From: a virus
Lineage: Duplodnaviria > Heunggongvirae > Uroviricota > Caudoviricetes
Reading direction: 5' to 3' (one strand)
DNA length: 25,242 bases
Virus record (IMG/VR): IMGVR_UViG_3300022561_001209
The translations under genes and the position numbers were made by a program. The notes under the pieces are model-generated. The model made no database searches, was not told the DNA's origin, and worked only from the letters and a program-made list of their open reading frames with translations. Below are positions 3,381 to 20,782 of this stretch, piece after piece. The stretch's first letter is position 1; each line of letters starts with the position of its first letter.

Positions 3381-3409
3381 ATTATAAACTAAAACTTTTA
3401 CTTTGTCAA
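3381..3409 (-). promoter_or_regulatory. consensus sigma-A promoter driving the 212-aa protein + ncRNA
   Basis: TTGACA (3404-3409), 17 nt, TATAAT (3381-3386) on the minus strand; A-tract upstream. Confidence 0.9.
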
Positions 3410-5454: not shown

Positions 5455-5483
5455 ATTATAACATAAAACCTAACCTTTGTCAA
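5455..5483 (-). promoter_or_regulatory. consensus sigma-A promoter
   Basis: TTGACA 5478-5483, 17 nt, TATAAT 5455-5460; AATTACA-N8-TGTAATT inverted repeat at 5431-5452 over the expected start site. Confidence 0.9.
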
Positions 5484-5701: not shown

Positions 5702-6031
5702 TTATTCAAATGTACTTAGTATTAATTCAAAATTTAATCCACTACCTATTATATTTAATGGTCTGTTTTCTTTATGATTTAGCGTAATTATAAACCCTAA
5801 ATCGTCTATACCATACCTTTCTCCGTAAATATCAAATCTTCTGCTGTATTCTTCATATCCTATGTATTCAAGTAATTTAATCAATTTATAAGTGTTTAAA
5901 TCTGTATTTGAAAAATCTTTTGTTAGTTCTTCTTCTGATTCTTCTGCTCTCTTAATAAATTCTTTAACTTCATCTAAATACTTATTTACATTTTCTTTAT
6001 TCAAATTATCTTTTAATACTATATTTATCAT
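5702..6031 (-). CDS. hypothetical protein, paralog of 3805..4116
   Basis: AAAGGGG RBS; shared motifs with 3805..4116. Confidence 0.85.
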   Translation of the reverse strand: MINIVLKDNLNKENVNKYLDEVKEFIKRAEESEEELTKDFSNTDLNTYKLIKLLEYIGYEEYSRRFDIYGERYGIDDLGFIITLNHKENRPLNIIGSGLNFELILSTFE

Positions 6032-6219
6032 TTCTTAAGCCCCTTTCCCTATTTAATAACGCCTTGATTATATTTATATGTCTAACCGAGGTGTCTTTAC
6101 TTTTATCCTTAATTCGTCATTTTATTATAGCTTTAGATTTTCCTATCGCTGTTAATCAGTCACTTCTAAATGCTTCTACAGCTGTTTAGTTACTGTTAAT
6201 ACTGAAATAATTTTCTTTG

Positions 6220-6534
6220 TTACTGTTCTATCTCTTCTTCTTTTTCTTTTATTTTAAATACATATTTTGAATTGAGTGTGTACACTCTAAATTCATCGTT
6301 TTTAATCTCTACTGATTCTATTGTTGATGTTCTTATTCCCCAACATTCAGGATTATCTAAATAGTCTATAGGTTTGTCAAACTCTATAAACAAACATCCG
6401 CCTGCATAATTTAAGTATTCTTTACCCATTGGACTGTATATTTCTGCTTCTACCCCTTTTACAGGAAATTTCAACCTTTTCTTTGTTTCCAATGTCATTC
6501 CGTAAATTAACTTAACCTTCGCTCTTTCAACCAT
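6220..6534 (-). CDS. hypothetical protein, 104 aa
   Basis: AAGGAGG RBS, intact ORF. Confidence 0.85.
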   Translation of the reverse strand: MVERAKVKLIYGMTLETKKRLKFPVKGVEAEIYSPMGKEYLNYAGGCLFIEFDKPIDYLDNPECWGIRTSTIESVEIKNDEFRVYTLNSKYVFKIKEKEEEIEQ

Positions 6535-7992: not shown

Positions 7993-8021
7993 ATTATAAA
8001 CTAATTTTAAACATTTGTCAA
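7993..8021 (-). promoter_or_regulatory. consensus sigma-A promoter
   Basis: TTGACA 8016-8021, 17 nt, TATAAT 7993-7998. Confidence 0.9.
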
Positions 8022-8095: not shown

Positions 8096-8980
8096 TTAGA
8101 AACATTTCCTATCGCATGTTTTACATTTAAATTCACAGTTTCCTTCAGCCATTCTTGAATATTTATACATTCTGTCTTTTAATATAAATCTTAGTAATAA
8201 TCTAATTACATCTGTATTTTCTACCAATTCTATATCAAAATCACTTTCTCCTGTATAGTAATTTAAACAACTTTCGTAAAGTTCTGCTGATTCACTTCTA
8301 TCAACTAATTTTATTGTGTTTATGTAAGGTAGTACCTTCATTAACACCTGTCTAGGTATAAAATATGAATTTAAATCATTAGGACATATGAAGTCACCGT
8401 ATATACGTCTGTCTGTTTTAAATAAATGTTTATCCATATTCATGCATGCAGGATTACAGTGGTGATTACATAAATAAACTAAGTTTACTTTCTTACTTGC
8501 TTCTCGTAAATATTCTTCATCTAGCATTTTATGATATGCTACAACTATGCTATCAAATCTTTCGTCTATTTCTTCATTATATGAATTTCCCACTATACTT
8601 CTATGAAACTTCAATCCCTTGTATATTGATTTTAATTTATAGAATTCATTGTCCCATTTAGTCACCATAAATCCTCTTACACCTAATTCACAGTATTTTT
8701 TTATTACATCTATATCCCCCTTAGGATATGTAATTACTATAGGTTTATGCACTAATATTCTTTTTATCAAATTAAAATATTCTTCTCTATCATATTTATA
8801 TAGAAACACCCTTCCAGACAATCCATCAGTACCATGTACTGGCATATATACTGATTGTATATAATCAGGATTTAAGTACTGTTCATTATTTGTTATGTTA
8901 TCGAACAGTACTTCCTCACCTTCAAATGTTAAAGGTATTTCAAATATTTCTCTAAAGTCTTCATTAAATTTTTGTCTCAT
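8096..8980 (-). CDS. peptidase U32-like (TrhP/RlhA/UbiUV superfamily) TIM-barrel Fe-S protein
   Basis: GLSGR, GVRGFMV, FDSIVV, LCNHHCNPAC, FICP, FIPRQ...IKLVDRS (cf. KIEGR/KISGR) and C-terminal CEFKCKTCDRKC follow the order of motifs in U32-like proteins. Confidence 0.7.
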   Translation of the reverse strand: MRQKFNEDFREIFEIPLTFEGEEVLFDNITNNEQYLNPDYIQSVYMPVHGTDGLSGRVFLYKYDREEYFNLIKRILVHKPIVITYPKGDIDVIKKYCELGVRGFMVTKWDNEFYKLKSIYKGLKFHRSIVGNSYNEEIDERFDSIVVAYHKMLDEEYLREASKKVNLVYLCNHHCNPACMNMDKHLFKTDRRIYGDFICPNDLNSYFIPRQVLMKVLPYINTIKLVDRSESAELYESCLNYYTGESDFDIELVENTDVIRLLLRFILKDRMYKYSRMAEGNCEFKCKTCDRKCF

Positions 8981-8993
8981 TTATATTTCCCCT

Positions 8994-10313
8994 TTAGCAA
9001 TGTTTTAATAACTCTTCTTTTGTGTTATCTATTTCCTCGTTTATTACCATTTCAAGTAATCTGTTTAATGTTTCTCCTATTTCTTTACTTGGTTTATATC
9101 CCTTTTTAATTAAATCATCTCCGCTTATTGCTAAACTTTTTAACGTAAAACTTAAATCATCTAATTCTAAATTATCAATCATTTTTTCAATTTCATCTAA
9201 CATATTTAATCTTTCTTCAGGTCCGATTACACCTTGCTGACCTTTTACATCAGCTCTATTTAACTTTAGGAGTTTTCTAAATGTACTCTCACCCAATTTA
9301 TTTATCATTCTTTTTATAAACTTAGTTGTGACTGAAAGTTGAATGTCATGATATTTTATTAATGTTATTATTTCTTCTATTTCTTTATTACTAAATCTAA
9401 GTCTGTTTAATATCTCTTCTGCTAACCCTCTTGAAACTTCAGCGTGTCCGTAAAAATGCCCTATATTTTCCACTGGTTTTTCTGTATAACAATATGGTTT
9501 ACCAACATCATGCAATAATGCTGCTATTTTCAATATTCTATCGTTTTCTGATTCTCTAACTACTTCTATAGTATGTGTCCACACATCATTCTTATGATAA
9601 GGATTGTTTTGCTCAAACCCATCTGATTTTTCCAATTCAGGTATTATTTCGAATATCACATCTTTAAACTCTCTTAATATTCTACTTACCCCTTTACCTG
9701 TAAGTATTTTGCTTATCTCTACACTTATTCTTTCAGCTGACACATTTTTTAATTTGTCTTTAAATGTATGAATAACTTCTGCTGTCTCATTCTCTATTTC
9801 AAAATCTAATACTGAAGCAAATCTCAATGCTCTTAGTATTCTTAAACTGTCTTCACCAAATCTTTCACAAGGACTTCCTACACATCTTATTATGCCTTGT
9901 TCTAAATCTGACTTACCTCCAAATATATCTATTAAGCCATCCTTTTCAGAATAAGCCGTTGAATTAATAGTAAAGTCTCTTCTACTTAAATCCTCCTCTA
10001 TTTTATTCGTAAATATTACTTCATCAGGGTGTCTACCATCTGAATAATCACCATCTATTCTGTATGTAGTTACTTCAAAACCTTCTTCACCTAACATAAC
10101 AGTAATAGTTCCGTGTTTCAATCCTGTTGGTATCACTTTGTATGACTTAAACACTTTCAGCATCTGTTCAGGTAATGCGTTTGTGCATATATCCCAATCT
10201 TTAGGTTCTTTGTTTAACATACTATCTCTGACACATCCACCTACAACGTATCCATCAAATCCTGCCTTATTTAATTCATTTATTATTTTAACTGCGTTCC
10301 CGTTTAGTTTCAT
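8994..10313 (-). CDS. cca: class II CCA tRNA nucleotidyltransferase with HD domain
   Basis: VGGCVRD...DWDICT, EVTTYRID + YSDGRHP loop, RRDFTINS, EDSLRILRALRF, SAERI, HD motifs HKNDVWTHT / LLHDVGKP / FYGHAE / YHD. Confidence 0.95.
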   Translation of the reverse strand: MKLNGNAVKIINELNKAGFDGYVVGGCVRDSMLNKEPKDWDICTNALPEQMLKVFKSYKVIPTGLKHGTITVMLGEEGFEVTTYRIDGDYSDGRHPDEVIFTNKIEEDLSRRDFTINSTAYSEKDGLIDIFGGKSDLEQGIIRCVGSPCERFGEDSLRILRALRFASVLDFEIENETAEVIHTFKDKLKNVSAERISVEISKILTGKGVSRILREFKDVIFEIIPELEKSDGFEQNNPYHKNDVWTHTIEVVRESENDRILKIAALLHDVGKPYCYTEKPVENIGHFYGHAEVSRGLAEEILNRLRFSNKEIEEIITLIKYHDIQLSVTTKFIKRMINKLGESTFRKLLKLNRADVKGQQGVIGPEERLNMLDEIEKMIDNLELDDLSFTLKSLAISGDDLIKKGYKPSKEIGETLNRLLEMVINEEIDNTKEELLKHC

Positions 10314-10317
10314 TATT

Positions 10318-10827
10318 TCACTTCCTTATGTATAAGTATGTACTTCTTTCAAAATGTAAATCACCTATTATTTCTTCTAATTTATATTTTCTAGGAAATT
10401 TAGGAATATTTTTCTCAACATAACCCATTTCTTCTAAATCCTTTATAGGTGTTCCTATGTACATATAAAAATGTTCTCTACCCAATTTTATTGATGATTT
10501 CATCATTTCCTTTATTGTCTCTATCCCCATATTTTCTAATACAAATATAGAACATTCATTAGGTATTTTACTTATTTCCTCTAATATATTCATTTTGTCA
10601 ATTTCAATTTTAAATATATTGAAATTGAAATCATCTTGTAATATTTTATTTAAGTCTATATCTTCACCCATATTTGTTAACATGTAAGTCTCTTTGCATA
10701 TTCTACCTATAAAATCAGATATGTATATTATATTATTATCGTTAAATATTTCTGAGTTATACCCCACATCTTTATTGTCAAATATACTTGTTTTAAATTC
10801 TTTTAAAGTTCTTTTAATTGTTCTCAA
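10318..10827 (-). CDS. hypothetical protein, 169 aa (TTG start)
   Basis: GAGG RBS before TTG; abuts cca with a 4-nt gap. Confidence 0.75.
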   Translation of the reverse strand: MRTIKRTLKEFKTSIFDNKDVGYNSEIFNDNNIIYISDFIGRICKETYMLTNMGEDIDLNKILQDDFNFNIFKIEIDKMNILEEISKIPNECSIFVLENMGIETIKEMMKSSIKLGREHFYMYIGTPIKDLEEMGYVEKNIPKFPRKYKLEEIIGDLHFERSTYLYIRK

Positions 10828-10921
10828 ATTTCCTCACACCCTTAATAAAAATGTCAGATGTAATTTTAGACAAATCACACCCAACACTTCTATACAATTA
10901 TGTAATATTTATTCGTAAATA

Positions 10922-12191: not shown

Positions 12192-12220
12192 ATTATATAC
12201 TAAATAAATCATTTTGTCAA
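12192..12220 (-). promoter_or_regulatory. consensus sigma-A promoter (extended -10)
   Basis: TTGACA 12215-12220, 17 nt, TATAAT 12192-12197. Confidence 0.9.
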
Positions 12221-12671: not shown

Positions 12672-13349
12672 TTATAATGATTTATTTTTCTTAATTGAAT
12701 TTCTAGTTATCAATGTTTGTAAAGTCGTTTTGCTCCTGTTTAAATATTTAACTATAGTATTCCAAGATTTTATTCCGTGATATTTCCTTATGTATTCTAC
12801 ACATTTTTCTTTTTCTTCTTCTGTCATGAATTCGCATTTCTTATTAGTTTTTTGCACTATTCTAATTTCATTTAAATAGCAATATCTGCTTATTGTATTA
12901 CAATTTACTCCAAATTCTTCTCCTAAATCTAATGTACTTTTAGTTTCTAACTGTTTTCTTATGTAATCCACAACATCTTCTTCTTTATCAAATTTTTCAT
13001 CTATGACTTCTTTTATTATGCTGTGTAATTTACTGTTTTTATTTTCTCTGTATTCCTCTAGAAAATCTAACAGTAATTTTTCATCTATACTCATTTCGTT
13101 AGCTAACTCTTTTTTATGTTTAAATATATTATTATAAATGTAATTTATTTCTTTTTCAGACAAATCGTATTTATCTACATAATAATTTATATCCACACTT
13201 TTATATGTTATAACAGTATTTATTTTATTTATTTTACAATATTTTTTTATATCTTCTACGTTTACTGCTATGTCACTCGCTATTTTTAATGGTGTTCTTT
13301 TACCCATACATTTTCTAATGTATTTTTCTTCTAATTCTGTAAATTCCAC
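12672..13349 (-). CDS. tandem HTH-repeat protein (about 4 repeats)
   Basis: repeating (F/L/M)(T/S)ExExxYI...IA..L.....I..Y units of about 50-60 aa; GAGGAG RBS, GTG start. Confidence 0.7.
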   Translation of the reverse strand: MEFTELEEKYIRKCMGKRTPLKIASDIAVNVEDIKKYCKINKINTVITYKSVDINYYVDKYDLSEKEINYIYNNIFKHKKELANEMSIDEKLLLDFLEEYRENKNSKLHSIIKEVIDEKFDKEEDVVDYIRKQLETKSTLDLGEEFGVNCNTISRYCYLNEIRIVQKTNKKCEFMTEEEKEKCVEYIRKYHGIKSWNTIVKYLNRSKTTLQTLITRNSIKKNKSL

Positions 13350-13361
13350 TTTTCTACTCCT

Positions 13362-14258
13362 CTAGTTTTTAAATTTTTCCATTACTCTATTAAAAGAACT
13401 TTTCCACTCTTTATCATATTCTACTTCTTCTCCCACTATAAATTCTGTTAATTTTCCTATTTCTACATTTTCTATGTCCTTTATAACTCTAAAGTATCTT
13501 TCAGATACTTCTATATATCCGCCTTCTCTTAGTTCTTTGTACATCTCTTTAATTTCTTCTTTTATGTTATTAGATACGTTTTTTGTAGGTATCAATGAGT
13601 TTTTAAGTATTTTTATACTTTCGTTGTACTTTTTGTATTTACCTATAACTATTACACCATTTTTATTTAAAAATACAGCTCTTTCACCATTTTCATAATC
13701 TTTAATATCTATATTAGTTATTTTTTTAATTTCATCATAACTTTTAATTTGAGAATAATCATATGTGTTTTTATTGTCTTCTTCAATTCTTCTGTTTATT
13801 TCTTCTTCTGCATTTTTCTCAATTATTTTTTCTATTTCACTATCTACTGTATTGCCTTCTTTTGTTTCTATTTCTATTATATCAGCTTTACCTTTCGTTT
13901 CCTTTTGTACTTCAATTTCATTTGTATTGTTTAGTATGTTACTAATTATTTCAGCGTCACCTATCAATTCTTTTAACTCGTTAAATTTTGACTCTTTTAC
14001 TAAATTAAATATCTTCTCATTAATTTTGTTTCTTACTTCTTCTATCACTATTTTCTTTTCATATACTTTGGTATGTATTAATATCGTTCTCAAATCTACT
14101 ATGTTTTTGTTGTTTGTGTTTATATTTCTTAGAGCGTCTATTGTTTCATCTTCAAATAGTTTGTTTAATAACTCTTGTTTGTATTCATTTAATTGTGAAA
14201 ACTTATTACCCATTTCTAGATTGTATTTAGTTACTATTTCTTTTAATATCTTTTCCAT
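13362..14258 (-). CDS. coiled-coil N-terminus + DUF4357 (RAMA-like) C-terminal domain
   Basis: C-terminal VFL..G...G...IKILKNS...LREGGYIE...FRVIKDIE...FIVG...EWK resembles the DUF4357 pattern as I recall it; GGGAG RBS. Confidence 0.55.
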   Translation of the reverse strand: MEKILKEIVTKYNLEMGNKFSQLNEYKQELLNKLFEDETIDALRNINTNNKNIVDLRTILIHTKVYEKKIVIEEVRNKINEKIFNLVKESKFNELKELIGDAEIISNILNNTNEIEVQKETKGKADIIEIETKEGNTVDSEIEKIIEKNAEEEINRRIEEDNKNTYDYSQIKSYDEIKKITNIDIKDYENGERAVFLNKNGVIVIGKYKKYNESIKILKNSLIPTKNVSNNIKEEIKEMYKELREGGYIEVSERYFRVIKDIENVEIGKLTEFIVGEEVEYDKEWKSSFNRVMEKFKN

Positions 14259-14287
14259 TTTCTTCTTCTCCCTTAGTTTATCTTTTG

Positions 14288-14320
14288 TAACAAGTCCTTA
14301 ATCTCTATAACTTGTCCTTA
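14288..14320. promoter_or_regulatory. operator-like direct repeat in the 5' leader
   Basis: TAACAAGTCCTTA (14288-14300) and TAACTTGTCCTTA (14308-14320), 20-bp period, just downstream of the promoter. Confidence 0.45.
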
Positions 14321-14335
14321 TTTTTAATATATCTT

Positions 14336-14364
14336 ATTATACCACAATATAAATTATTTGTCAA
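14336..14364 (-). promoter_or_regulatory. consensus sigma-A promoter
   Basis: TTGACA 14359-14364, 17 nt, TATAAT 14336-14341. Confidence 0.9.
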
Positions 14365-14412
14365 CTATTTTTTTGACTTTTTAACTAACTTTTTTAAATT
14401 TAAAATTTTAAT

Positions 14413-14444
14413 AAAAAAATAACTACCTTTAAGGTAGTTATTTT
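14413..14444 (-). terminator. intrinsic terminator
   Basis: AAAATAACTACCTT / AAGGTAGTTATTTT inverted repeat + T-run; overlaps the stop of 14438..14665. Confidence 0.8.
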
Positions 14445-14665
14445 TCATTATGTATTTTATCATTCACTGTTAAATTACATATATTCTTTTGGAATATCCC
14501 AGGTTTATCTAAATATACTCCTGCCACATATTTATCATATTCTTCAGCTATAAGTCCTGGAAATGGATGTGTTATCCTACCAACTATTCCAACCATGTCT
14601 TCATCATCACTATCTGTAATAACCACCATTGTTCCTACTTCAAAATCTGTTTTACCTGCTTTCAT
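14438..14665 (-). CDS. small beta-rich (KOW/SH3-like) hypothetical protein
   Basis: FEVGTMVVITD...GIVGRI pattern; AGGAG RBS. Confidence 0.75.
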   Translation of the reverse strand: MKAGKTDFEVGTMVVITDSDDEDMVGIVGRITHPFPGLIAEEYDKYVAGVYLDKPGIFQKNICNLTVNDKIHNEK

Positions 14666-14679
14666 AAATGTTCTCCTTA

Positions 14680-14877
14680 TTATCCGAAATACATTAATAT
14701 ATCTGACAATACCAATTCACCATTTTTAAATATTAAGTCCTCTTTAAAATAATGTTTAATTTTATTTATGTTTACTTTAAATATATTGTCCATCTCTTCT
14801 TTAAATTCTGACACTATTTCGCTACCATTTTTATAAACTATATGGTATGTTGTACTATTAAATTTACAGTCAAACAT
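14680..14877 (-). CDS. hypothetical protein, 65 aa
   Basis: AAGGAG RBS. Confidence 0.75.
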   Translation of the reverse strand: MFDCKFNSTTYHIVYKNGSEIVSEFKEEMDNIFKVNINKIKHYFKEDLIFKNGELVLSDILMYFG

Positions 14878-14892
14878 AAATTTCTCCTTATC

Positions 14893-15234
14893 TTATATGT
14901 CGAAATTCATTACTTTATCTAAAAGTGTTGTTCCCTTAAATAATACTTTAAGCTGTTTAATAAACTCTTCTTTCCCTATTTTTTCTCCGTTTTCTTTTAA
15001 TGTACTAAATTGTACTCTTTTAACTGGCGCCCCTTGTTTTATTAGATATAATACACATGTATCTTTAATGTTAAAATCCATATTCATACTGTAGTAATCA
15101 TATAATGTATAAATTCCCCATTTTTTCCCTGAACCCACTGTTTCTCTTCTTTTATGTGTTTCAGGTGTTGCTACCTCAGCGTCTTTCATATTCATTTCCA
15201 AACAATTTGCCATGTAATCCGTAAATTTTTTCAT
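14893..15234 (-). CDS. hypothetical protein, 113 aa
   Basis: intact ORF in the operon; RBS within the end of the upstream gene. Confidence 0.8.
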   Translation of the reverse strand: MKKFTDYMANCLEMNMKDAEVATPETHKRRETVGSGKKWGIYTLYDYYSMNMDFNIKDTCVLYLIKQGAPVKRVQFSTLKENGEKIGKEEFIKQLKVLFKGTTLLDKVMNFDI

Positions 15235-15243
15235 AATTTTTTC

Positions 15244-15828
15244 TTATTCTCCTCTTATTTGTCTTAATAAATATGGTACTCCATTTGCCTTATCTTCATA
15301 GTCATTTAAGTATTCTATGTTTCTTATATTTGACCAATCTATTCCAGTTAGATACATTAATTCTTTCATATTACTACCAAATTTGCTGTAATAATTTCTT
15401 ATCACATCTATATCATAAACACCTGTTATGTATTCTACTGGAATATCTTCTGTAAACATTATGTATCCTATAGGTGACCTACTATTTCTACATTCTATAC
15501 ATAAGTAATAATCTAAATCATTTGTATTAAAAAGTATGCCTATATTATATTCGCTACTAAACAACCTTTTTAGTTCTGTTGGTAATGTATAAACACCTTT
15601 CCCAAAGTTATTTTCATCGGCTGTTTCTTTGCTTGTCATTATTCCATTTTCTCTTATACTACTTATATTATTTTTATCTGTAAAATGCACCATTTCTCTG
15701 TTTGTGTTTTGTTCTACTAGTATATATTCTTTATCATGACCTATACAAAATTTCTCCAAATTGTCTATGTTATTTTCATACTCTTCTTGTGATATTACCA
15801 CACTATAAGGTATTTTATTTAAATTCAT
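15244..15828 (-). CDS. putative ADP-ribosyltransferase-fold protein (DarT/Tpt1/PARP-like motifs)
   Basis: VHFTDKNNISSIRENGI, NFGKGVY, MFTEDIPVEYI; GGAGG RBS. Confidence 0.55.
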   Translation of the reverse strand: MNLNKIPYSVVISQEEYENNIDNLEKFCIGHDKEYILVEQNTNREMVHFTDKNNISSIRENGIMTSKETADENNFGKGVYTLPTELKRLFSSEYNIGILFNTNDLDYYLCIECRNSRSPIGYIMFTEDIPVEYITGVYDIDVIRNYYSKFGSNMKELMYLTGIDWSNIRNIEYLNDYEDKANGVPYLLRQIRGE

Positions 15829-15830
15829 CT

Positions 15831-16025
15831 CTACCTCCTTAGACCATTTACCTCTGCATTAGATTCATGTTTAATATATTCTACACATTCTTCTTCTGTA
15901 TCAAATTCTATTAACACGTTTCCACTCTTTAAATTACCGTCTGCATCCCATATTCCAGCCCATGTTATTGGTCTTACGTAATACTTACCGTTTGTCCTTT
16001 TACCAAGAATTAAATGTTCTTTCAT
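15831..16025 (-). CDS. hypothetical protein, 64 aa
   Basis: AGGAG RBS. Confidence 0.75.
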   Translation of the reverse strand: MKEHLILGKRTNGKYYVRPITWAGIWDADGNLKSGNVLIEFDTEEECVEYIKHESNAEVNGLRR

Positions 16026-16033
16026 ATTATCTC

Positions 16034-16306
16034 CTATGTTGTAAATCTAATTATTCCCCAATCTATAAACTCTAAGAACTCACCTGTTCTTTTTCCATCT
16101 TGTAGTCTGCTTCTTGCTTCTGTTTTTGTGCAACCTACTTCATCACACCAATCACTACAGAAGTCATCCCAATCTGAATAGTATGCACATACATTAGGTT
16201 CTATTCTATGTTCTTTACAATGTTTCAATATTTTTCTAATCTTTATTTCATCTAATGGTTGATACCAATCTGGATAGCCTATCTGCTCCAATAATTCTGT
16301 TTTCAT
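16034..16306 (-). CDS. hypothetical protein, ~90 aa
   Basis: ORF track 16034..16321; start moved to the ATG at 16304-16306 after GGAG/GGGG. Confidence 0.8.
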   Translation of the reverse strand: MKTELLEQIGYPDWYQPLDEIKIRKILKHCKEHRIEPNVCAYYSDWDDFCSDWCDEVGCTKTEARSRLQDGKRTGEFLEFIDWGIIRFTT

Positions 16307-16329
16307 TCTTCCCCACTCCAATTAATTTA

Positions 16330-16599
16330 TTATTTTATATATTCTTTAATTTCTTCTTCCGTAAATTCTATTCCTTTTAATGTGTATCTTACTGCTCCTT
16401 GTAATCCTTCTGTTTTTACCCATTCCCTATTTTCATATGTGTTAATCAACTCTAAATCTCTTCTTAACCATAGTTTACATCCTGTTTCGAAATTATAAAA
16501 TAATCTGTATTCATTTACTAATGTGTATAATCCTCAATCTTTTATGTATTCTGATTTCTCTTCTAACTCTTTAACTAAGTATTAAAATAATCTTTCCAT
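16330..16599 (-). pseudogene. gene with two in-frame stops (MERLF*YLVKELEEKSEYIKD*GLYTLV...EEEIKEYIK)
   Basis: single frame, TAA at 16582-16584 and TGA at 16534-16536, then 67 open codons with no good start; fills the gap between flanking genes. Confidence 0.7.
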
Positions 16600-16604
16600 A
16601 TCTC

Positions 16605-16814
16605 CTAATCTTCTACAACATCACTTTCATTAGTTCTCCAAATATAATAACATCTTCCTGCAAATATCTTGTTGTAATCTCCATTTTCTATTCTTTCACA
16701 CAATGTTTGATATGCTTCTTCTGCTGTGTTTCCTTCAGATACTGTTTCAATTACTTCTATGTCACTTTCTTTCCAATTATGTGATACATCTATAAATATT
16801 TTATATTTTTTCAT
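16605..16814 (-). CDS. hypothetical protein, 69 aa
   Basis: GGAGG RBS. Confidence 0.75.
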   Translation of the reverse strand: MKKYKIFIDVSHNWKESDIEVIETVSEGNTAEEAYQTLCERIENGDYNKIFAGRCYYIWRTNESDVVED

Positions 16815-16841
16815 TTCTGTATCCTCCGTTAATATTTTAAA

Positions 16842-17066
16842 TTATTCCCCTTTATATACTTCAAACTCTTCATTTATTAGTGAATATATAAATGTTCCAG
16901 ATACTACCCACATGTCTCCAAAACAATCTGCTTCTACTAATCTACCTCTGTCATCTACCCAATACTCTGTTTTAGATATTTTTTCTCCGAGTTTAACTTT
17001 AAATATCTCGTTAGTATCTACTCCGAGTATTTCGCATATCTTGAATTTACTTTTACTCATAAACAT
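16842..17066 (-). CDS. hypothetical protein, 74 aa
   Basis: coupled to the end of 17053..17667. Confidence 0.7.
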   Translation of the reverse strand: MFMSKSKFKICEILGVDTNEIFKVKLGEKISKTEYWVDDRGRLVEADCFGDMWVVSGTFIYSLINEEFEVYKGE

Positions 17067-17667
17067 TCTCTATATCTTCGTATCTAACGTTAAATAATGA
17101 TTTATCATCATTTATCTCGTAACGTATTTTTCCTATTACCTTAAATTCATCTCTAATGCTCTCTAAATTATATGTTCCTGTATCATTACTGCCATCATAC
17201 ATCATATAAGTATCATATGTTATATTAGTACCGTCTTCAAATCTTATTTCTAACCAATTATAATCTAGACTTTCCAAAGGTTTTACTTTATTTAATATGA
17301 AGTTTATATAATCTTCTTCCGTAAATTTCATGAATTGTTCTTTACTTATATCATCTATGTAAGCGTATCTTTTAGTTTCCTCATATGCTTTAAACAGTTC
17401 TGTCACAGTCTCAGTTTTTTCATCTGTCTTAATTTGTATGTCTTTAAACATCTGTTCATCTAACTTTAAATCTTCATTTAATTCACTGTTCCAATTAAAT
17501 TCTAAAGGATATTTTTTCTTTTCCTCTACTGCTATTTTTAACTCTTTATCTAGTTCTTCTTTTAGTTTAGAATCTTTATTTGATACCTGCATAAATCCTA
17601 CTGCTAAAGCTATACACAGTAATGTGAATAACACTAAACCTAGTTTACCTTTTAAATCTTCGTTCAC
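17053..17667 (-). CDS. membrane-anchored hypothetical protein (single N-terminal TM helix)
   Basis: LGLVLFTLLCIALAVGFM; GGAGG RBS, GTG start. Confidence 0.85.
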   Translation of the reverse strand: MNEDLKGKLGLVLFTLLCIALAVGFMQVSNKDSKLKEELDKELKIAVEEKKKYPLEFNWNSELNEDLKLDEQMFKDIQIKTDEKTETVTELFKAYEETKRYAYIDDISKEQFMKFTEEDYINFILNKVKPLESLDYNWLEIRFEDGTNITYDTYMMYDGSNDTGTYNLESIRDEFKVIGKIRYEINDDKSLFNVRYEDIENVYE

Positions 17668-17681
17668 TTCTTACCTCCATT

Positions 17682-18005
17682 TTACCAACTAACAGGATAT
17701 CTATCTAATATCTCTTGATTATATAAATATTCTCCGTTATTATAACTAACTACATCTTCCCACCATTTTATCCCGTAAGTTAATCTTATAACTGCCATTC
17801 TTTCTATATCATCATCATGTATGTAAAATATTAAATCGTGTCTTCCGCCTTCTTCGTCTCTTTCAACACTTCCGTTTGTTATTACTTCTTCACAGAACTT
17901 AATTCTAATATCAAATTCACCAAACATAAACTGTTCAAACTGTTTTTCTGTATTATCTCCTAACATTGTAGCAGGCCATACACACAGTTGATTAAATTTA
18001 TCCAT
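17682..18005 (-). CDS. hypothetical protein, 107 aa
   Basis: AAGGGG RBS; aromatic-rich globular composition. Confidence 0.85.
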   Translation of the reverse strand: MDKFNQLCVWPATMLGDNTEKQFEQFMFGEFDIRIKFCEEVITNGSVERDEEGGRHDLIFYIHDDDIERMAVIRLTYGIKWWEDVVSYNNGEYLYNQEILDRYPVSW

Positions 18006-18025
18006 GCCCTTACCCCTTGCCTCTC

Positions 18026-18353
18026 TTAGTATATTCCGTAAACATTCCTATCTACCCATTTTCTTGATTGCTGGAAACTTGTGTAAGTCCTTAATGCATC
18101 ATCGTATTCTTTATATATTTCTGTATAAGTTGAATTATATTTACATTGCTACTTCTTTAAATACCCTATTTGCTACCTTATTATCAGGTGTATCCAATCT
18201 ATTGAATAAATCAAATGCTTCTTTATAATTATCTGTTATTAAGTCTATTTTCTCGTCTCCAGAATTTCTTATAATTGACCAGGTTTGATTTGCATTTTCT
18301 CTTATTACTATTTCGTATTTATCTCGCTTTAATCTTAACTCAGGCTCCATCAC
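18026..18353 (-). CDS. hypothetical protein, 70-aa ORF 18141..18353 with a probable frameshifted tail to 18026
   Basis: AAAGG RBS; the +1 frame continues CKYNSTYTEIYKEYDDALRTY...VYGIY* across an otherwise unexplained 135-nt gap. Confidence 0.6.
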
Positions 18354-18442
18354 ATAAGTTACCTTTCTTTTAGTTTATTTCTGTATACCGTGCTTTATAT
18401 ATAGTTTTACCATGTTCACAGTTTATCTTTTCTCTAAGTTTT

Positions 18443-18994
18443 CTATATCTCTATTTTACAGTGTTCAGCTATTCTCTTAGCATCTTTGTAATCATCAGGA
18501 TGTACTAAATATTCATCTAACTTATTATTTCCTCCGAATATCCTTAAAAATCCTGCGCACTGAGTAAATGTCTTTGCTCCCATACCTTTTATCTTCTTTA
18601 ATTCTTCTCTACTTTTGAACCTGCCTACTTCTTCTCTGTAATCTACTATCTTTTGTGCCATACTATTATTTATTCCTGCTACGTATGAAAGTAACTCCAC
18701 AGAAGCTGTATTTAAATTCACCCCTACCTCATTAACTATTGTAGTTGTTACTCTAGTTAATGCTATATTTAGTTTAGTTTGGTTCACATCATGTTGATAT
18801 TGTCCAACACCCAATGATTGAGGATTTATTTTTACATATTCACTCAATGGGTCTAATAATCTTCTTGCTAAACTTACTGAACTTATTAAGTTAATATCTA
18901 AATCTGGAAATTCTTTCTTTGCTGATGGTGTTGCTGAATATTTACTTGCTCCACTCTCATTTACTATTGTGTATTTAATTCCTTGTTTACTCAT
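18443..18994 (-). CDS. miniature Tex-like protein (end of YqgF/RNase H-like domain + HhH domains only)
   Basis: IVNESGASKYS, EFPDLD, SLARRLLDPLSEYVKI.P.SLGVGQYQHDV, VGVNLNTAS, FTQCAGFLRI, VHPDDY match Tex; no Tex_N or S1 domain; own AGGAG RBS. Confidence 0.9.
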   Translation of the reverse strand: MSKQGIKYTIVNESGASKYSATPSAKKEFPDLDINLISSVSLARRLLDPLSEYVKINPQSLGVGQYQHDVNQTKLNIALTRVTTTIVNEVGVNLNTASVELLSYVAGINNSMAQKIVDYREEVGRFKSREELKKIKGMGAKTFTQCAGFLRIFGGNNKLDEYLVHPDDYKDAKRIAEHCKIEI

Positions 18995-18995
18995 A

Positions 18996-20219
18996 CTATA
19001 TCTCCTTATTTTCCCTTTTTTTCATATCTTCAGTTTTTAACCCCATATTTAATTCTTTGGCATATTTTTTAATTGTTTCTATGCTCAATTTTAAATCTTC
19101 AGCTAATTCCTCTAATGTTAATTTATTATTATTTTCTCTTATATATTTTAAATTAGTTTCTTTCTTTCTATTTAAAAATTTTAAATTATGTTCTCTACCT
19201 ATTTCGTATATTTTATTTTTACTTATATTAAATTTTCTTGTCATTTCTTCTACAGTCATTTTATTTATGTTATTTATAATTAAATTTTCTATTTCAACAT
19301 ATTTGTTTTTTCTTCCGCCAATGTTTATTTTAGGTGTATATTTTAATCTATTAATATAGTAGTAATTTGCCACACTCTTGTATGTTCTATTAATTTTAAT
19401 TGCCATCTCTTCTATTGTCATATATTCAGAATACTTATGCATTGTTTCTTTTTCAGCATCTGTATATCCTTCAACTTTAGTATTTTTTCTCTCATACTTT
19501 GCTAATTCTCTTTTAAACCTATATTTATTTTTATATAAAAATTGTCTTACTTTTGTGTCTGATAATTCTAATTCTTTAGCCATTTCTTTTATAGTCATAT
19601 TATCTTTATTTGTTACTATGAATTTTTTCTCTTCCTCACTTAGTCCTCTTTGCTCTTCCGTAAAATCTATATTATGTTTTTTACAATATTTTTTAATACA
19701 CACCTTTTTTTTATCTGTAATTTCAGAAATTTCATCTAAATTCAAATATTTAGTTTTTTCTTCTAATTTCTTTTTATCTTCATATCTCATTATATTAAAT
19801 TTATTAGTTAATTTTATTCCATAATCTGTAGCATAATTAATTACTGTGTTTCTAGATATTCCGATATTTTTTGCGATTTCTAAAGCCGGTTTATCATTAT
19901 TTCCTTTTATATACACCAAAATTTCTAGTTCTCTTTTTATTTCTTTTTCTTTATTCACTCTATTTTTTAGAATATTATGTACTGTTCCTTGACTTATGTC
20001 TAATTTTTTTGCTATTGCATAATTACTTATCAATCCTTCGTTATTCAATATAAATTTTTTCTCTTGCACAAGTAATTTTCTCTGTATTTTTGCCTTTATT
20101 CCTTCAGATTCACAAAATGTTTTGACTGTGCTATAAGGTATTTTTAGTTCTTTAGATATTTCTTTATATGACATTTCTGCTGCGTTTTCTTTTATAAACT
20201 CTCTTTGGTTGTTGTCCAT
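18996..20219 (-). CDS. tandem HTH-repeat protein (about 8 repeats of 45-60 aa)
   Basis: units such as LSEEEKKFIVTNKDNMTIKEMAKELELSDTKVRQFLYKN and YTDAEKETMHKYSEYMTIEEMAIKINRTYKSVANYY; GCGGAG RBS. Confidence 0.75.
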   Translation of the reverse strand: MDNNQREFIKENAAEMSYKEISKELKIPYSTVKTFCESEGIKAKIQRKLLVQEKKFILNNEGLISNYAIAKKLDISQGTVHNILKNRVNKEKEIKRELEILVYIKGNNDKPALEIAKNIGISRNTVINYATDYGIKLTNKFNIMRYEDKKKLEEKTKYLNLDEISEITDKKKVCIKKYCKKHNIDFTEEQRGLSEEEKKFIVTNKDNMTIKEMAKELELSDTKVRQFLYKNKYRFKRELAKYERKNTKVEGYTDAEKETMHKYSEYMTIEEMAIKINRTYKSVANYYYINRLKYTPKINIGGRKNKYVEIENLIINNINKMTVEEMTRKFNISKNKIYEIGREHNLKFLNRKKETNLKYIRENNNKLTLEELAEDLKLSIETIKKYAKELNMGLKTEDMKKRENKEI

Positions 20220-20281: not shown

Positions 20282-20554
20282 TTATTTATTATGATTTGTG
20301 TTTTTTGATATTACTTCGAATGCCTTAGTCACTTCAACAAATATTTCCATGTGTTTATGCATCTCTAGTGAACTGTATTCTGCAAATACTTCACCTTTCT
20401 TGGATGTTATATAGTAAGGCTTTAAATTATTAAGTGCCTTTGCCTTAACATCATCTAAACACTTTTCACACGTACACACGTTTTTATACATGCCCCTATT
20501 AATTAAGTCTTCCAATATGATGTCTACACATATCTCCATATAGTTTTTAACCAT
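20282..20554 (-). CDS. comFB: ComFB-family protein (cyclic-dinucleotide-binding family)
   Basis: KNYME..V...L, CTCEKCLDDVKAKALNNLKPYY, KKGEVF, VEVTKAFEVISKN.NH pattern; GAGG RBS. Confidence 0.8.
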   Translation of the reverse strand: MVKNYMEICVDIILEDLINRGMYKNVCTCEKCLDDVKAKALNNLKPYYITSKKGEVFAEYSSLEMHKHMEIFVEVTKAFEVISKNTNHNK

Positions 20555-20685
20555 ACTTAATACCTCTCTTAGAATATTTTGTGTGTCATTCCTAAGGTGT
20601 TAATTTTTTAAATCTTAATTATCCCTAACTTATACAATAATACCTCAAAGTAATATTTTACAGGTTAACTATTTCCCGTATATCT

Positions 20686-20714
20686 ATTATAACATATTTA
20701 TACACTTTTGTCAA
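20686..20714 (-). promoter_or_regulatory. consensus sigma-A promoter of the comFB / 8xHTH / mini-Tex operon
   Basis: TTGACA 20709-20714, 17 nt, TATAAT 20686-20691. Confidence 0.9.
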
Positions 20715-20749
20715 TACTTTTATTATAACTTTTTATAATAATTCAAAAT

Positions 20750-20782
20750 AAAAATAAACTTTCATTTTTATGAAAGTTTATT
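20750..20782 (-). terminator. intrinsic terminator
   Basis: AATAAACTTTCAT / ATGAAAGTTTATT inverted repeat, 4-nt loop, T-run. Confidence 0.8.

Follow-up and report, generated by a model that had tools for sequence, protein, structure and literature searches.

A gene of the window (the whole 25,242-nt stretch of DNA analysed here) is confirmed as a genuine member of the ComFB family with the known fold of that family in its predicted structure, and the element that carries it is very probably a large virulent phage, judging from its gene content and layout. As a protein it is a further, clear-cut member of a family already known; its setting, on a phage and together with a cyclase and chemotaxis genes, is what is new. 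ComFB was recognised as a widespread family of c-di-GMP/c-di-AMP receptors only in 2023-2025, and its flagellar target is still unsettled. Based on the genomic context and on what is reported for the family, we propose, with a probability of about 0.5, that the phage ComFB serves as the reader within a phage-run kit for c-di-GMP signalling and chemotaxis that acts on host motility. The features of the ComFB locus are collected in Table 1.

Table 1. Features of the ComFB locus, in coordinates of the window, and functional residues of its product
Feature	Position	Strand	Description
ComFB coding sequence	20282..20554	-	90 aa, ATG start, stand-alone, without extra domain
Ribosome-binding site AGAGAGG	20563..20569	-	8 nt before the ComFB ATG, read from sequence
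Perfect extended sigma-70 promoter, TTGACA, 17-nt spacer, TG-n-TATAAT	20686..20714	-	12/12 score, about 130 nt before the ComFB start codon
Intrinsic terminator of the preceding unit	20745..20782	-	13-bp AT-rich hairpin and U-tract, -11.8 kcal/mol, z -5.7
407-aa protein with eight tandem HTH repeats (8xHTH)	18996..20219	-	phrog_323, D5-like regulator; many HTH Pfam families
183-aa Tex-like YqgF-tail/HhH protein	18443..18994	-	next in the ComFB unit; 91% identical in sister phage L007
ComFB dimer and ligand residues			N4, E7, D35, A38, N42, Y48, I49, T50, S51, F57, Y60

Family membership, zinc site and predicted ligand-binding interface

The ComFB profile PF10719 matches the open reading frame with an E-value of 7.8e-21 and a score of 74.4 bits (cut-off 25) over positions 1-82 of the 83 in the model. 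The NCBIfam ComFB model scores 40.7 bits (E-value 1.9e-10), which lies under the cut-off of 120 set for that equivalog model. Sequence matches to proteins of known structure include B. subtilis ComFB (PDB identifier 4WAI) with an E-value of 2e-6 and CdgR with c-di-GMP (PDB identifier 8HJA) with an E-value of 0.012. When the AlphaFold2 model of the phage protein (pLDDT 79.6) was compared with the PDB using Foldseek, 4WAI was the top match with a TM score of 0.74 and a probability of 1.0, followed by 8HJA with a probability of 0.99, and the search found no confident match beyond ComFB and CdgR chains. The zinc motif CxCxxC is present as C27-x-C29-x-x-C32, with all three cysteines invariant. Thus, the first-pass annotation, which was made from the letters and their translations and described a stand-alone 90-aa ComFB domain with a CxCxxC motif, is borne out by the profile match and by these cysteines. 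Also, His88 is conserved at 90% or more both in the close alignment and in a wide alignment of 61 members, and is plausibly the fourth zinc ligand, taking the place of Cys88 of B. subtilis ComFB.

Residue numbering was anchored on the zinc cysteines through the alignments to 4WAI and 8HJA. The five residues reported to mediate dimerisation of B. subtilis ComFB (Asn4, Glu7, Asp33, Asn40 and Tyr46; PMC12448109) are all kept in the phage protein, as N4, E7, D35, N42 and Y48. The ligand contacts D33, N40, A36, V47 and Y55 of the B. subtilis protein correspond to D35, N42, A38, I49 and F57, of which D35 and N42 are invariant across the clade and in both known phage copies, and the contact L37 corresponds to K39. 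In CdgR, eight ligand positions have been validated by mutagenesis (PMC10068817); five of these, namely D93, N100, T108, T109 (as Ser) and Y115, are kept in the phage ComFB as D35, N42, T50, S51 and Y60, while Y97, R101 and Q116 are not. The basic ligand residue, which is K41 in B. subtilis ComFB and R101 in CdgR, is Asn43 in the phage protein and in at least 90% of the Sedimentibacter clade. This substitution is not disqualifying, since K41A costs B. subtilis ComFB only about 2.6-fold in affinity, as against about 74-fold for D33A and about 29-fold for N40A. The first-pass annotation had named the loss of the family's binding residues as grounds for giving up a nucleotide-binding function, and the alignment reveals that these residues are mostly retained (D35, N42, A38, I49, T50, S51 and F57/Y60).

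A homodimer of the phage ComFB, modelled with c-di-GMP and zinc riding along, obtained a score of 0.84, against 0.01 for the best of three controls. Of proteins solved as pairs of one chain, 20 of 30 attain the mark used for this score, as does 1 of 23 proteins solved as single chains. The three homodimer runs agreed in 100% of their contacts, with a pLDDT of at least 89 for the partner chain, and the predicted interface uses exactly the published dimer residues. As 4WAI is itself a solved dimer, this score may reflect what the predictor had learned from that structure and is taken as likeness rather than proof. As a part of the motility explanation as a whole, and at the same even odds, the phage ComFB would be a dimeric, zinc-stabilised receptor for c-di-GMP, and possibly for c-di-AMP as well.

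Structurally, the phage protein shares with B. subtilis ComFB the fold, the zinc knuckle, the dimer residues and the ligand contacts listed above, but the two are only about 25% identical in the structural alignment, differ at the basic position and at the fourth zinc ligand, and the phage gene stands outside a comF operon. With cyanobacterial CdgR (SyComFB) it shares the ComFB core, the dimer interface of which is where c-di-GMP sits in CdgR. Unlike CdgR, it has neither the N- and C-terminal extensions nor the Arg lid (R142, R148). CdgR works by way of transcription factors of the CRP type and type IV pili.

A phage-like locus with a ComFB gene of Tissierellia descent

The element matches several phage-specific families, among them phrog_1491 at 1e-57 and phrog_6077 at 4e-81, the latter with homologues in 107 phage records, and further phrog_1818, phrog_323, phrog_135, phrog_174 and phrog_2244, as well as the dUTPase and dCMP deaminase PHROG families. 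Six-frame lists of open reading frames place the coding frames almost all on one strand, with genes that are mostly small. These phage families and this gene layout show that the gene had been assigned correctly to a phage-like element when the sequence was first read. At least 10 contigs in JGI, ENA and Logan samples, of up to 220,542 bp, encode the identical ComFB protein. No capsid, portal or terminase gene was seen in the roughly 95 kb inspected of a genome of about 220 kb (about 70 kb walked upstream and about 20 kb downstream), and a megablast search of the window against INPHARED gave no close cultured relative.

ComFB opens a new transcription unit, since the terminator of the preceding unit and then a promoter stand upstream of it. 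The terminator is AT-rich and was missed by the consensus terminator scan, which demands at least three G-C pairs. The placement of ComFB first behind a consensus promoter, as originally noted, is therefore upheld by a sigma-70 site with the TG extension and by the terminator just upstream of it. The window holds six perfect copies of TTGACA-17-TATAAT, all on the coding strand, versus 0.13 expected by chance, and it looks like an early region read by the host polymerase. The 8xHTH gene starts 62 nt after ComFB, no terminator was detected between the two by the scan that demands at least three G-C pairs, and the two genes are probably co-transcribed. A search for riboswitches returned no Rfam match in the window or in the 126-nt ComFB leader. 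A structured leader was also considered and rejected, as the leader folds no better than shuffled sequence.

A second copy of the gene, 78% identical at the protein level, was found in the sister phage L007, in which the order of 13 genes follows that of the window, with protein identities of 28-91%. In L007 a perfect promoter stands 128 nt upstream of ComFB and the Tex-like gene comes after ComFB and a 44-aa open reading frame. While the promoter, ComFB and the Tex-like gene are all kept, neither an HTH gene nor a remnant of one was found in the L007 locus. The dN/dS between the two phage copies is 0.11, with a dS of 1.28; the phage ComFB is under purifying selection and neutrality is excluded.

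All other ComFB homologues found are bacterial, and the nearest are those of Sedimentibacter/Tissierellia (for example, S. hydroxybenzoicus DSM 7310 and S. saalensis DSM 13558), which are 54-60% identical to the phage protein, have a length of 89-90 aa, and share with it the CxCxxC...H88 pattern and the invariant residues N4, Y5, E7, D35, A38, N42 and Y48. Maximum-likelihood analysis groups the two phage proteins together (100/99) and places them within the Sedimentibacter/Tissierellia clade (98/90). From these sequence relationships we conclude that the phage ComFB was captured from a Sedimentibacter-like Tissierellia host lineage. In about 26 relatives, ComFB lies in a flagellar/chemotaxis locus, where FlhB-like/PilZ/SLH/ComFB genes face CheD/CheC/FapA/FlgG/SigD/FlhA genes, with cheA-cheR-cheB alongside. 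In contrast, the phage gene is located on a phage-like element behind a consensus early promoter, has no flagellar neighbours, and has a GC content of 30% versus 41% for the host gene. Sedimentibacter genomes hold two ComFB paralogues each. The sister group of the phage pair in the tree (96/81, with long branches) consists of six chromosomal ComFBs without flagellar neighbours, one of which (L043) lies beside relA, in the order apt-relA-MBL-radical SAM-ComFB, and not beside flagellar genes. Given this sister group, the donor paralogue was not necessarily that of the flagellar locus. An en-bloc capture of the host SLH gene adjoining ComFB was considered and rejected, the likeness being at the level of the SLH domain only, with 23-32% identity.

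The capture was followed by uneven change along the protein. The core of ComFB (residues 27-64) is conserved at 78% between phage and bacteria versus 84% among bacteria, which is much the same level, compared with 22% versus 47% for helix 1 and 41% versus 66% for helix 3. The two phage copies agree at 67% in helix 1 and at 77% in helix 3. Phage-specific changes are also seen outside the interface at positions that are invariant in the hosts, viz., Q66 to H or S, A69M, I72F and F81V. These comparisons indicate that helices 1 and 3 were remodelled once in the phage lineage and conserved afterwards, and the output surface of the phage ComFB may thus differ from that of the host protein.

Companion signalling genes and a proposed action on host motility

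Independently assembled contigs of this element, followed upstream past the right end of the window, revealed a set of signalling and chemotaxis genes on the same coding strand. A CheA of 691 aa and a CheR of 268 aa are 55% and 63% identical, respectively, to their counterparts in the Sedimentibacter locus, and the His and kinase boxes of CheA are intact by eye. CheB is represented by its catalytic domain only, without a receiver domain, and two assemblies show the same in-frame TAG. About 30 kb past these three genes lies a membrane-anchored methyl-accepting chemotaxis protein (MCP) with HAMP and signalling domains and an intact signalling tip. Directly after the MCP comes a gene for a 391-aa protein whose N-terminal part is long and hydrophobic and whose GGDEF domain has its motif intact, with an RxxD I-site five residues before that motif. 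This protein apparently is an active diguanylate cyclase. Full-length homologues of this cyclase in Sedimentibacter are 41-42% identical to it, and Sedimentibacter genomes contain 15-25 matches each to the phage GGDEF protein. The companion genes have a GC content of 27-30%, or 35% in the case of the CheB domain, compared with 40-43% for the host locus, and their junctions agree at 99.9% in three independent assemblies (ENA, JGI and Logan). This element-like GC content and the agreement of the junctions argue that the companion genes are resident and not the product of a chimeric assembly. The cyclase and chemotaxis genes stand 10-42 kb from ComFB in other transcription units, and hence their functional link to ComFB is one of shared genome and shared pathway only.

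We hypothesize that a large virulent phage, infecting a Tissierellia host akin to Sedimentibacter, took ComFB from the host lineage and kept it under selection. Early in infection, the host RNA polymerase would transcribe the gene from its consensus sigma-A promoter. Supplied by the phage or by the host, c-di-GMP would then bind at the dimer interface of ComFB, through D35 and N42 with T50, S51, F57 and Y60. The loaded dimer would act on the host flagellar apparatus in the manner of B. subtilis ComFB, which lowers swimming speed and tumbling only when loaded with c-di-GMP and in that state inhibits swimming and swarming (PMC12448109). Suppressors of this motility effect in B. subtilis map to CheY, FliM and FliY. 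In the phage-infected host, the outcome might be arrest, smooth swimming or redirected taxis.

This motility takeover is the most economical explanation, since one phage combines a GGDEF protein that would make c-di-GMP, a ComFB of host descent that would read it, and an MCP-CheA-CheR-CheB set. It also agrees with one of the functions offered in the first-pass annotation, the manipulation of host c-di-GMP physiology, which fits the wider context of GGDEF, MCP, CheA, CheR and CheB-domain genes on the element. More tentatively, the parts may form a self-contained second-messenger circuit run by the virus, in which its own membrane GGDEF protein would make c-di-GMP and its own ComFB would read it. 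A chemoreceptor, CheA, CheR and a CheB that would be constitutively active for want of a receiver, all likewise encoded by the phage, would add control of swimming and taxis. If this circuit is real, ComFB would be the first virus-encoded c-di-GMP receptor.

It was also suggested from the sequence that ComFB could be a sponge against CBASS-type signals. In such a reading, an abundant early ComFB would sequester a signal and thereby blunt CBASS or STING-type immunity based on c-di-GMP/c-di-AMP, or drain the free c-di-GMP or c-di-AMP pool of the host. The phage ComFB indeed resembles the sponges Acb2, Tad1 and Tad2 in being small, phage-encoded, oligomeric (as a predicted dimer) and probably expressed early, and in the binding of cyclic nucleotides, which is predicted for ComFB; its gene comes first after a perfect promoter and has a strong ribosome-binding site. 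We found no published test of a ComFB on cGAMP, cUA or cA3. The conservation of the ligand and dimer core, with helices 1 and 3 drifted away from the host type, would be expected if only binding mattered, but the same helices are themselves conserved between the phage copies. Draining c-di-GMP would moreover be self-defeating for a phage that encodes an apparently active diguanylate cyclase. The ligands of the family are the housekeeping nucleotides c-di-GMP and c-di-AMP, bound with affinities of 0.14-8 micromolar for the former and 20-83 micromolar or none for the latter, and to our knowledge these affinities are weaker than those of the known phage sponges. The three sponges have no sequence or fold relationship to the phage ComFB, the confident fold matches of which in the PDB are confined to ComFB and CdgR chains and the model of which has no structure match in BFVD (best E-value 1.9). 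Sequestration is, on this balance, an unlikely function.

Somewhat less likely still is a role as a nucleotide-dependent co-regulator, in which ComFB would bind the 8xHTH protein or a host factor and c-di-GMP would switch the interaction. The model for such a role is CdgR, which in its apo form binds the CRP-type factor DevH, with c-di-GMP weakening the binding (PMC10068817), and which is reported in a 2026 preprint to interact with two transcription factors. The closely following HTH gene and the lack of a detected terminator before it would suit this arrangement. However, sister phage L007 keeps the promoter, ComFB and the downstream genes without any trace of the HTH gene, no transcription factor adjoins ComFB in the nearest bacterial relatives, and the 8xHTH protein is unrelated to the CRP-family partners. 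The gene arrangement in L007 shows that the 8xHTH protein is no obligate partner and so weakens the earlier idea that ComFB is a sensor coupled to it. Another possibility, which we consider improbable to a greater degree, is that the phage ComFB is a dominant-negative mimic that heterodimerises with the flagellar ComFB of the host, or competes for its target, and so turns the host pathway off. Its interface residues are identical to those of the host ComFBs and it carries the changes at host-invariant, non-interface positions described above, but most of these substitutions look like repacking of the hydrophobic core; the reading is purely inferential and leaves the phage cyclase unexplained. 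The least probable of these alternatives is that ComFB has no phage function at all, either because the element is plasmid-like or another mobile element or because ComFB is a neutral passenger. No capsid, portal, terminase or DNA polymerase gene was seen in the approximately 95 kb inspected, and many genes on the element are host-like (SASP, SLH proteins, chemotaxis genes). Against a non-phage element stand phrog_1491, phrog_6077, phrog_1818, phrog_323, phrog_135 and phrog_174, a layout in which small genes predominate, almost all coding lies on one strand and consensus promoters and terminators recur, and the recurrence of the sequence at 99.9-100% identity in many metagenome samples; against a passenger stands the dN/dS of 0.11.

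ComFB among viral signalling genes and its meaning

A survey of how often ComFB occurs in phage genomes, as proposed in the first-pass annotation, was run over PHROGs, BFVD, INPHARED and IMG/VR and gave no further ComFB. In INPHARED, tblastn searches with the phage ComFB and with a Bacilli-type ComFB found no copy. In IMG/VR, no contig was found by pattern scans with the protein and the close alignment, scans that see close relatives only. The phage ComFB matches no PHROGs family, and 61 diverse ComFBs gave marginal matches only (two members to one family, and one member each to two others). We found no literature that links ComFB to a phage genome or that describes one phage with a cyclase, a ComFB receptor and a chemosensory set.

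The companion genes of the phage GGDEF, CheA, CheR and MCP kinds are not unprecedented, as PHROG families without an assigned function exist for them. For example, host-derived GGDEF proteins are represented by phrog_5594, phrog_14602 and gp350 of Bacillus phage G, and CheA-like, CheR-like and MCP-like proteins by phrog_22644, phrog_24903 and phrog_8572, respectively. Also, motA/motB are carried by a glacier-ice virus (PMC8290583). None of these signalling and motility families is ComFB. The matches to CheA and CheR in cultured phages are mostly to fragmentary or unannotated records, and none is in a well-characterised phage.

The phage ComFB, with its ligand and dimer core kept and its outer helices remodelled, offers a natural dissection of binding versus output surfaces in this family. 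It also cautions that not every small nucleotide-binding protein of a phage is a sponge for immune signals. Seen alongside the cyclase, chemoreceptor, CheA, CheR and CheB of the phage, it points to large phages of anaerobes some of which may steer the motility of their hosts through the host's own second-messenger logic, a form of takeover that is little explored.

Chemotaxis and signalling genes of the phage element

The phage-like element to which the window belongs carries cheA, cheR and cheB in the order of the host operon, and the encoded CheA (691 aa) and CheR (268 aa) are 55% and 63% identical, respectively, to their counterparts at the ComFB-containing Sedimentibacter locus. Both proteins are matched by PHROGs families, phrog_22644 and phrog_24903, which are annotated as being of unknown function. 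The phage CheB keeps its catalytic motifs (GASTG, H and D), and its gene is broken by a single in-frame TAG (L014:4184-4186) that the ENA and JGI assemblies share; the interrupted cheB would be either a decaying gene or one that is read through. Two further genes of the element, next to each other, encode a chemoreceptor (MCP) and a predicted GGDEF cyclase. The former is membrane-anchored, with HAMP and signalling domains and without a periplasmic sensor. In the latter the GGDEF and RxxD motifs are intact and the N-terminal region is long and hydrophobic; it has full-length homologues in Sedimentibacter genomes (41-42% identity).

Locations of the features discussed (L014, L088, L089 and L092, further assembled stretches of the element; L028, L041, L043 and L045-L047, bacterial chromosomal loci; G001-G003, Sedimentibacter genomes)
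Feature	Location	Remarks
cheA-cheR-cheB	L014:915-4420	coding strand as window's; ~5-9 kb past window's right end
Phage CheB	L014:3821-4420	catalytic domain only, without receiver domain
Adjacent MCP and GGDEF cyclase genes	L089:6808-9271	same element, ~42 kb from ComFB
Perfect TTGACA-17-TATAAT promoters	window 3381-3409, 5455-5483, 7993-8021, 12192-12220, 14336-14364, 20686-20714	all minus
SLH-domain proteins and small acid-soluble spore protein gene	L088:3199-7116, 8850-9920, 10636-10857, 12784-19725	
PLD/helicase protein (1047 aa), then Eco57I/MmeI-like methyltransferase (880 aa)	L092:1-4030	same element
His88 codon of phage ComFB	window 20291-20293	
L043 ComFB	L043:5989-6276	neighbourhood inspected
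ComFB match	L028, L041, L045, L046, L047, near 6001-6270	
Second ComFB-domain gene	G001:C1:71237-71473; G002:C8:154529-154765; G003:C8:480988-481224	

Promoters and other genes of the element

Perfect TTGACA-17-TATAAT sites occur six times in the window against 0.13 expected by chance, and all share the start TTGACAAA; these predicted promoters are all of one strong type, read by the host polymerase, and punctuate the region. Elsewhere the element encodes a small acid-soluble spore protein (PF00269, phrog_10367) and three SLH-domain proteins of 1305, 356 and 2313 aa, the largest of which additionally has RCC1/WD40, LRR and Big domains. The PLD/helicase and methyltransferase pair may give the phage a module for restriction or anti-restriction.

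ComFB zinc site and bacterial relatives

His88 is at least 90% conserved both in the close alignment and in the wide alignment of 61 CxCxxC-type ComFBs, whereas B. subtilis ComFB uses Cys88; most ComFBs of the Clostridia type may thus have a zinc site of the CCCH kind. In every Sedimentibacter genome examined, the ComFB gene of the flagellar locus is accompanied, at a distance of about 31 kb, by a second gene with a ComFB domain, which occupies a longer open frame of 154-158 aa. Flagellar neighbours are absent from the chromosomal ComFBs that form the sister group of the phage pair. At the one locus of this group that was inspected (L043), the gene order is apt, relA/spoT, MBL hydrolase, radical SAM, ComFB and oxaloacetate decarboxylase beta, a context hinting that the sister-group ComFB subfamily may have a second role, adjacent to (p)ppGpp.
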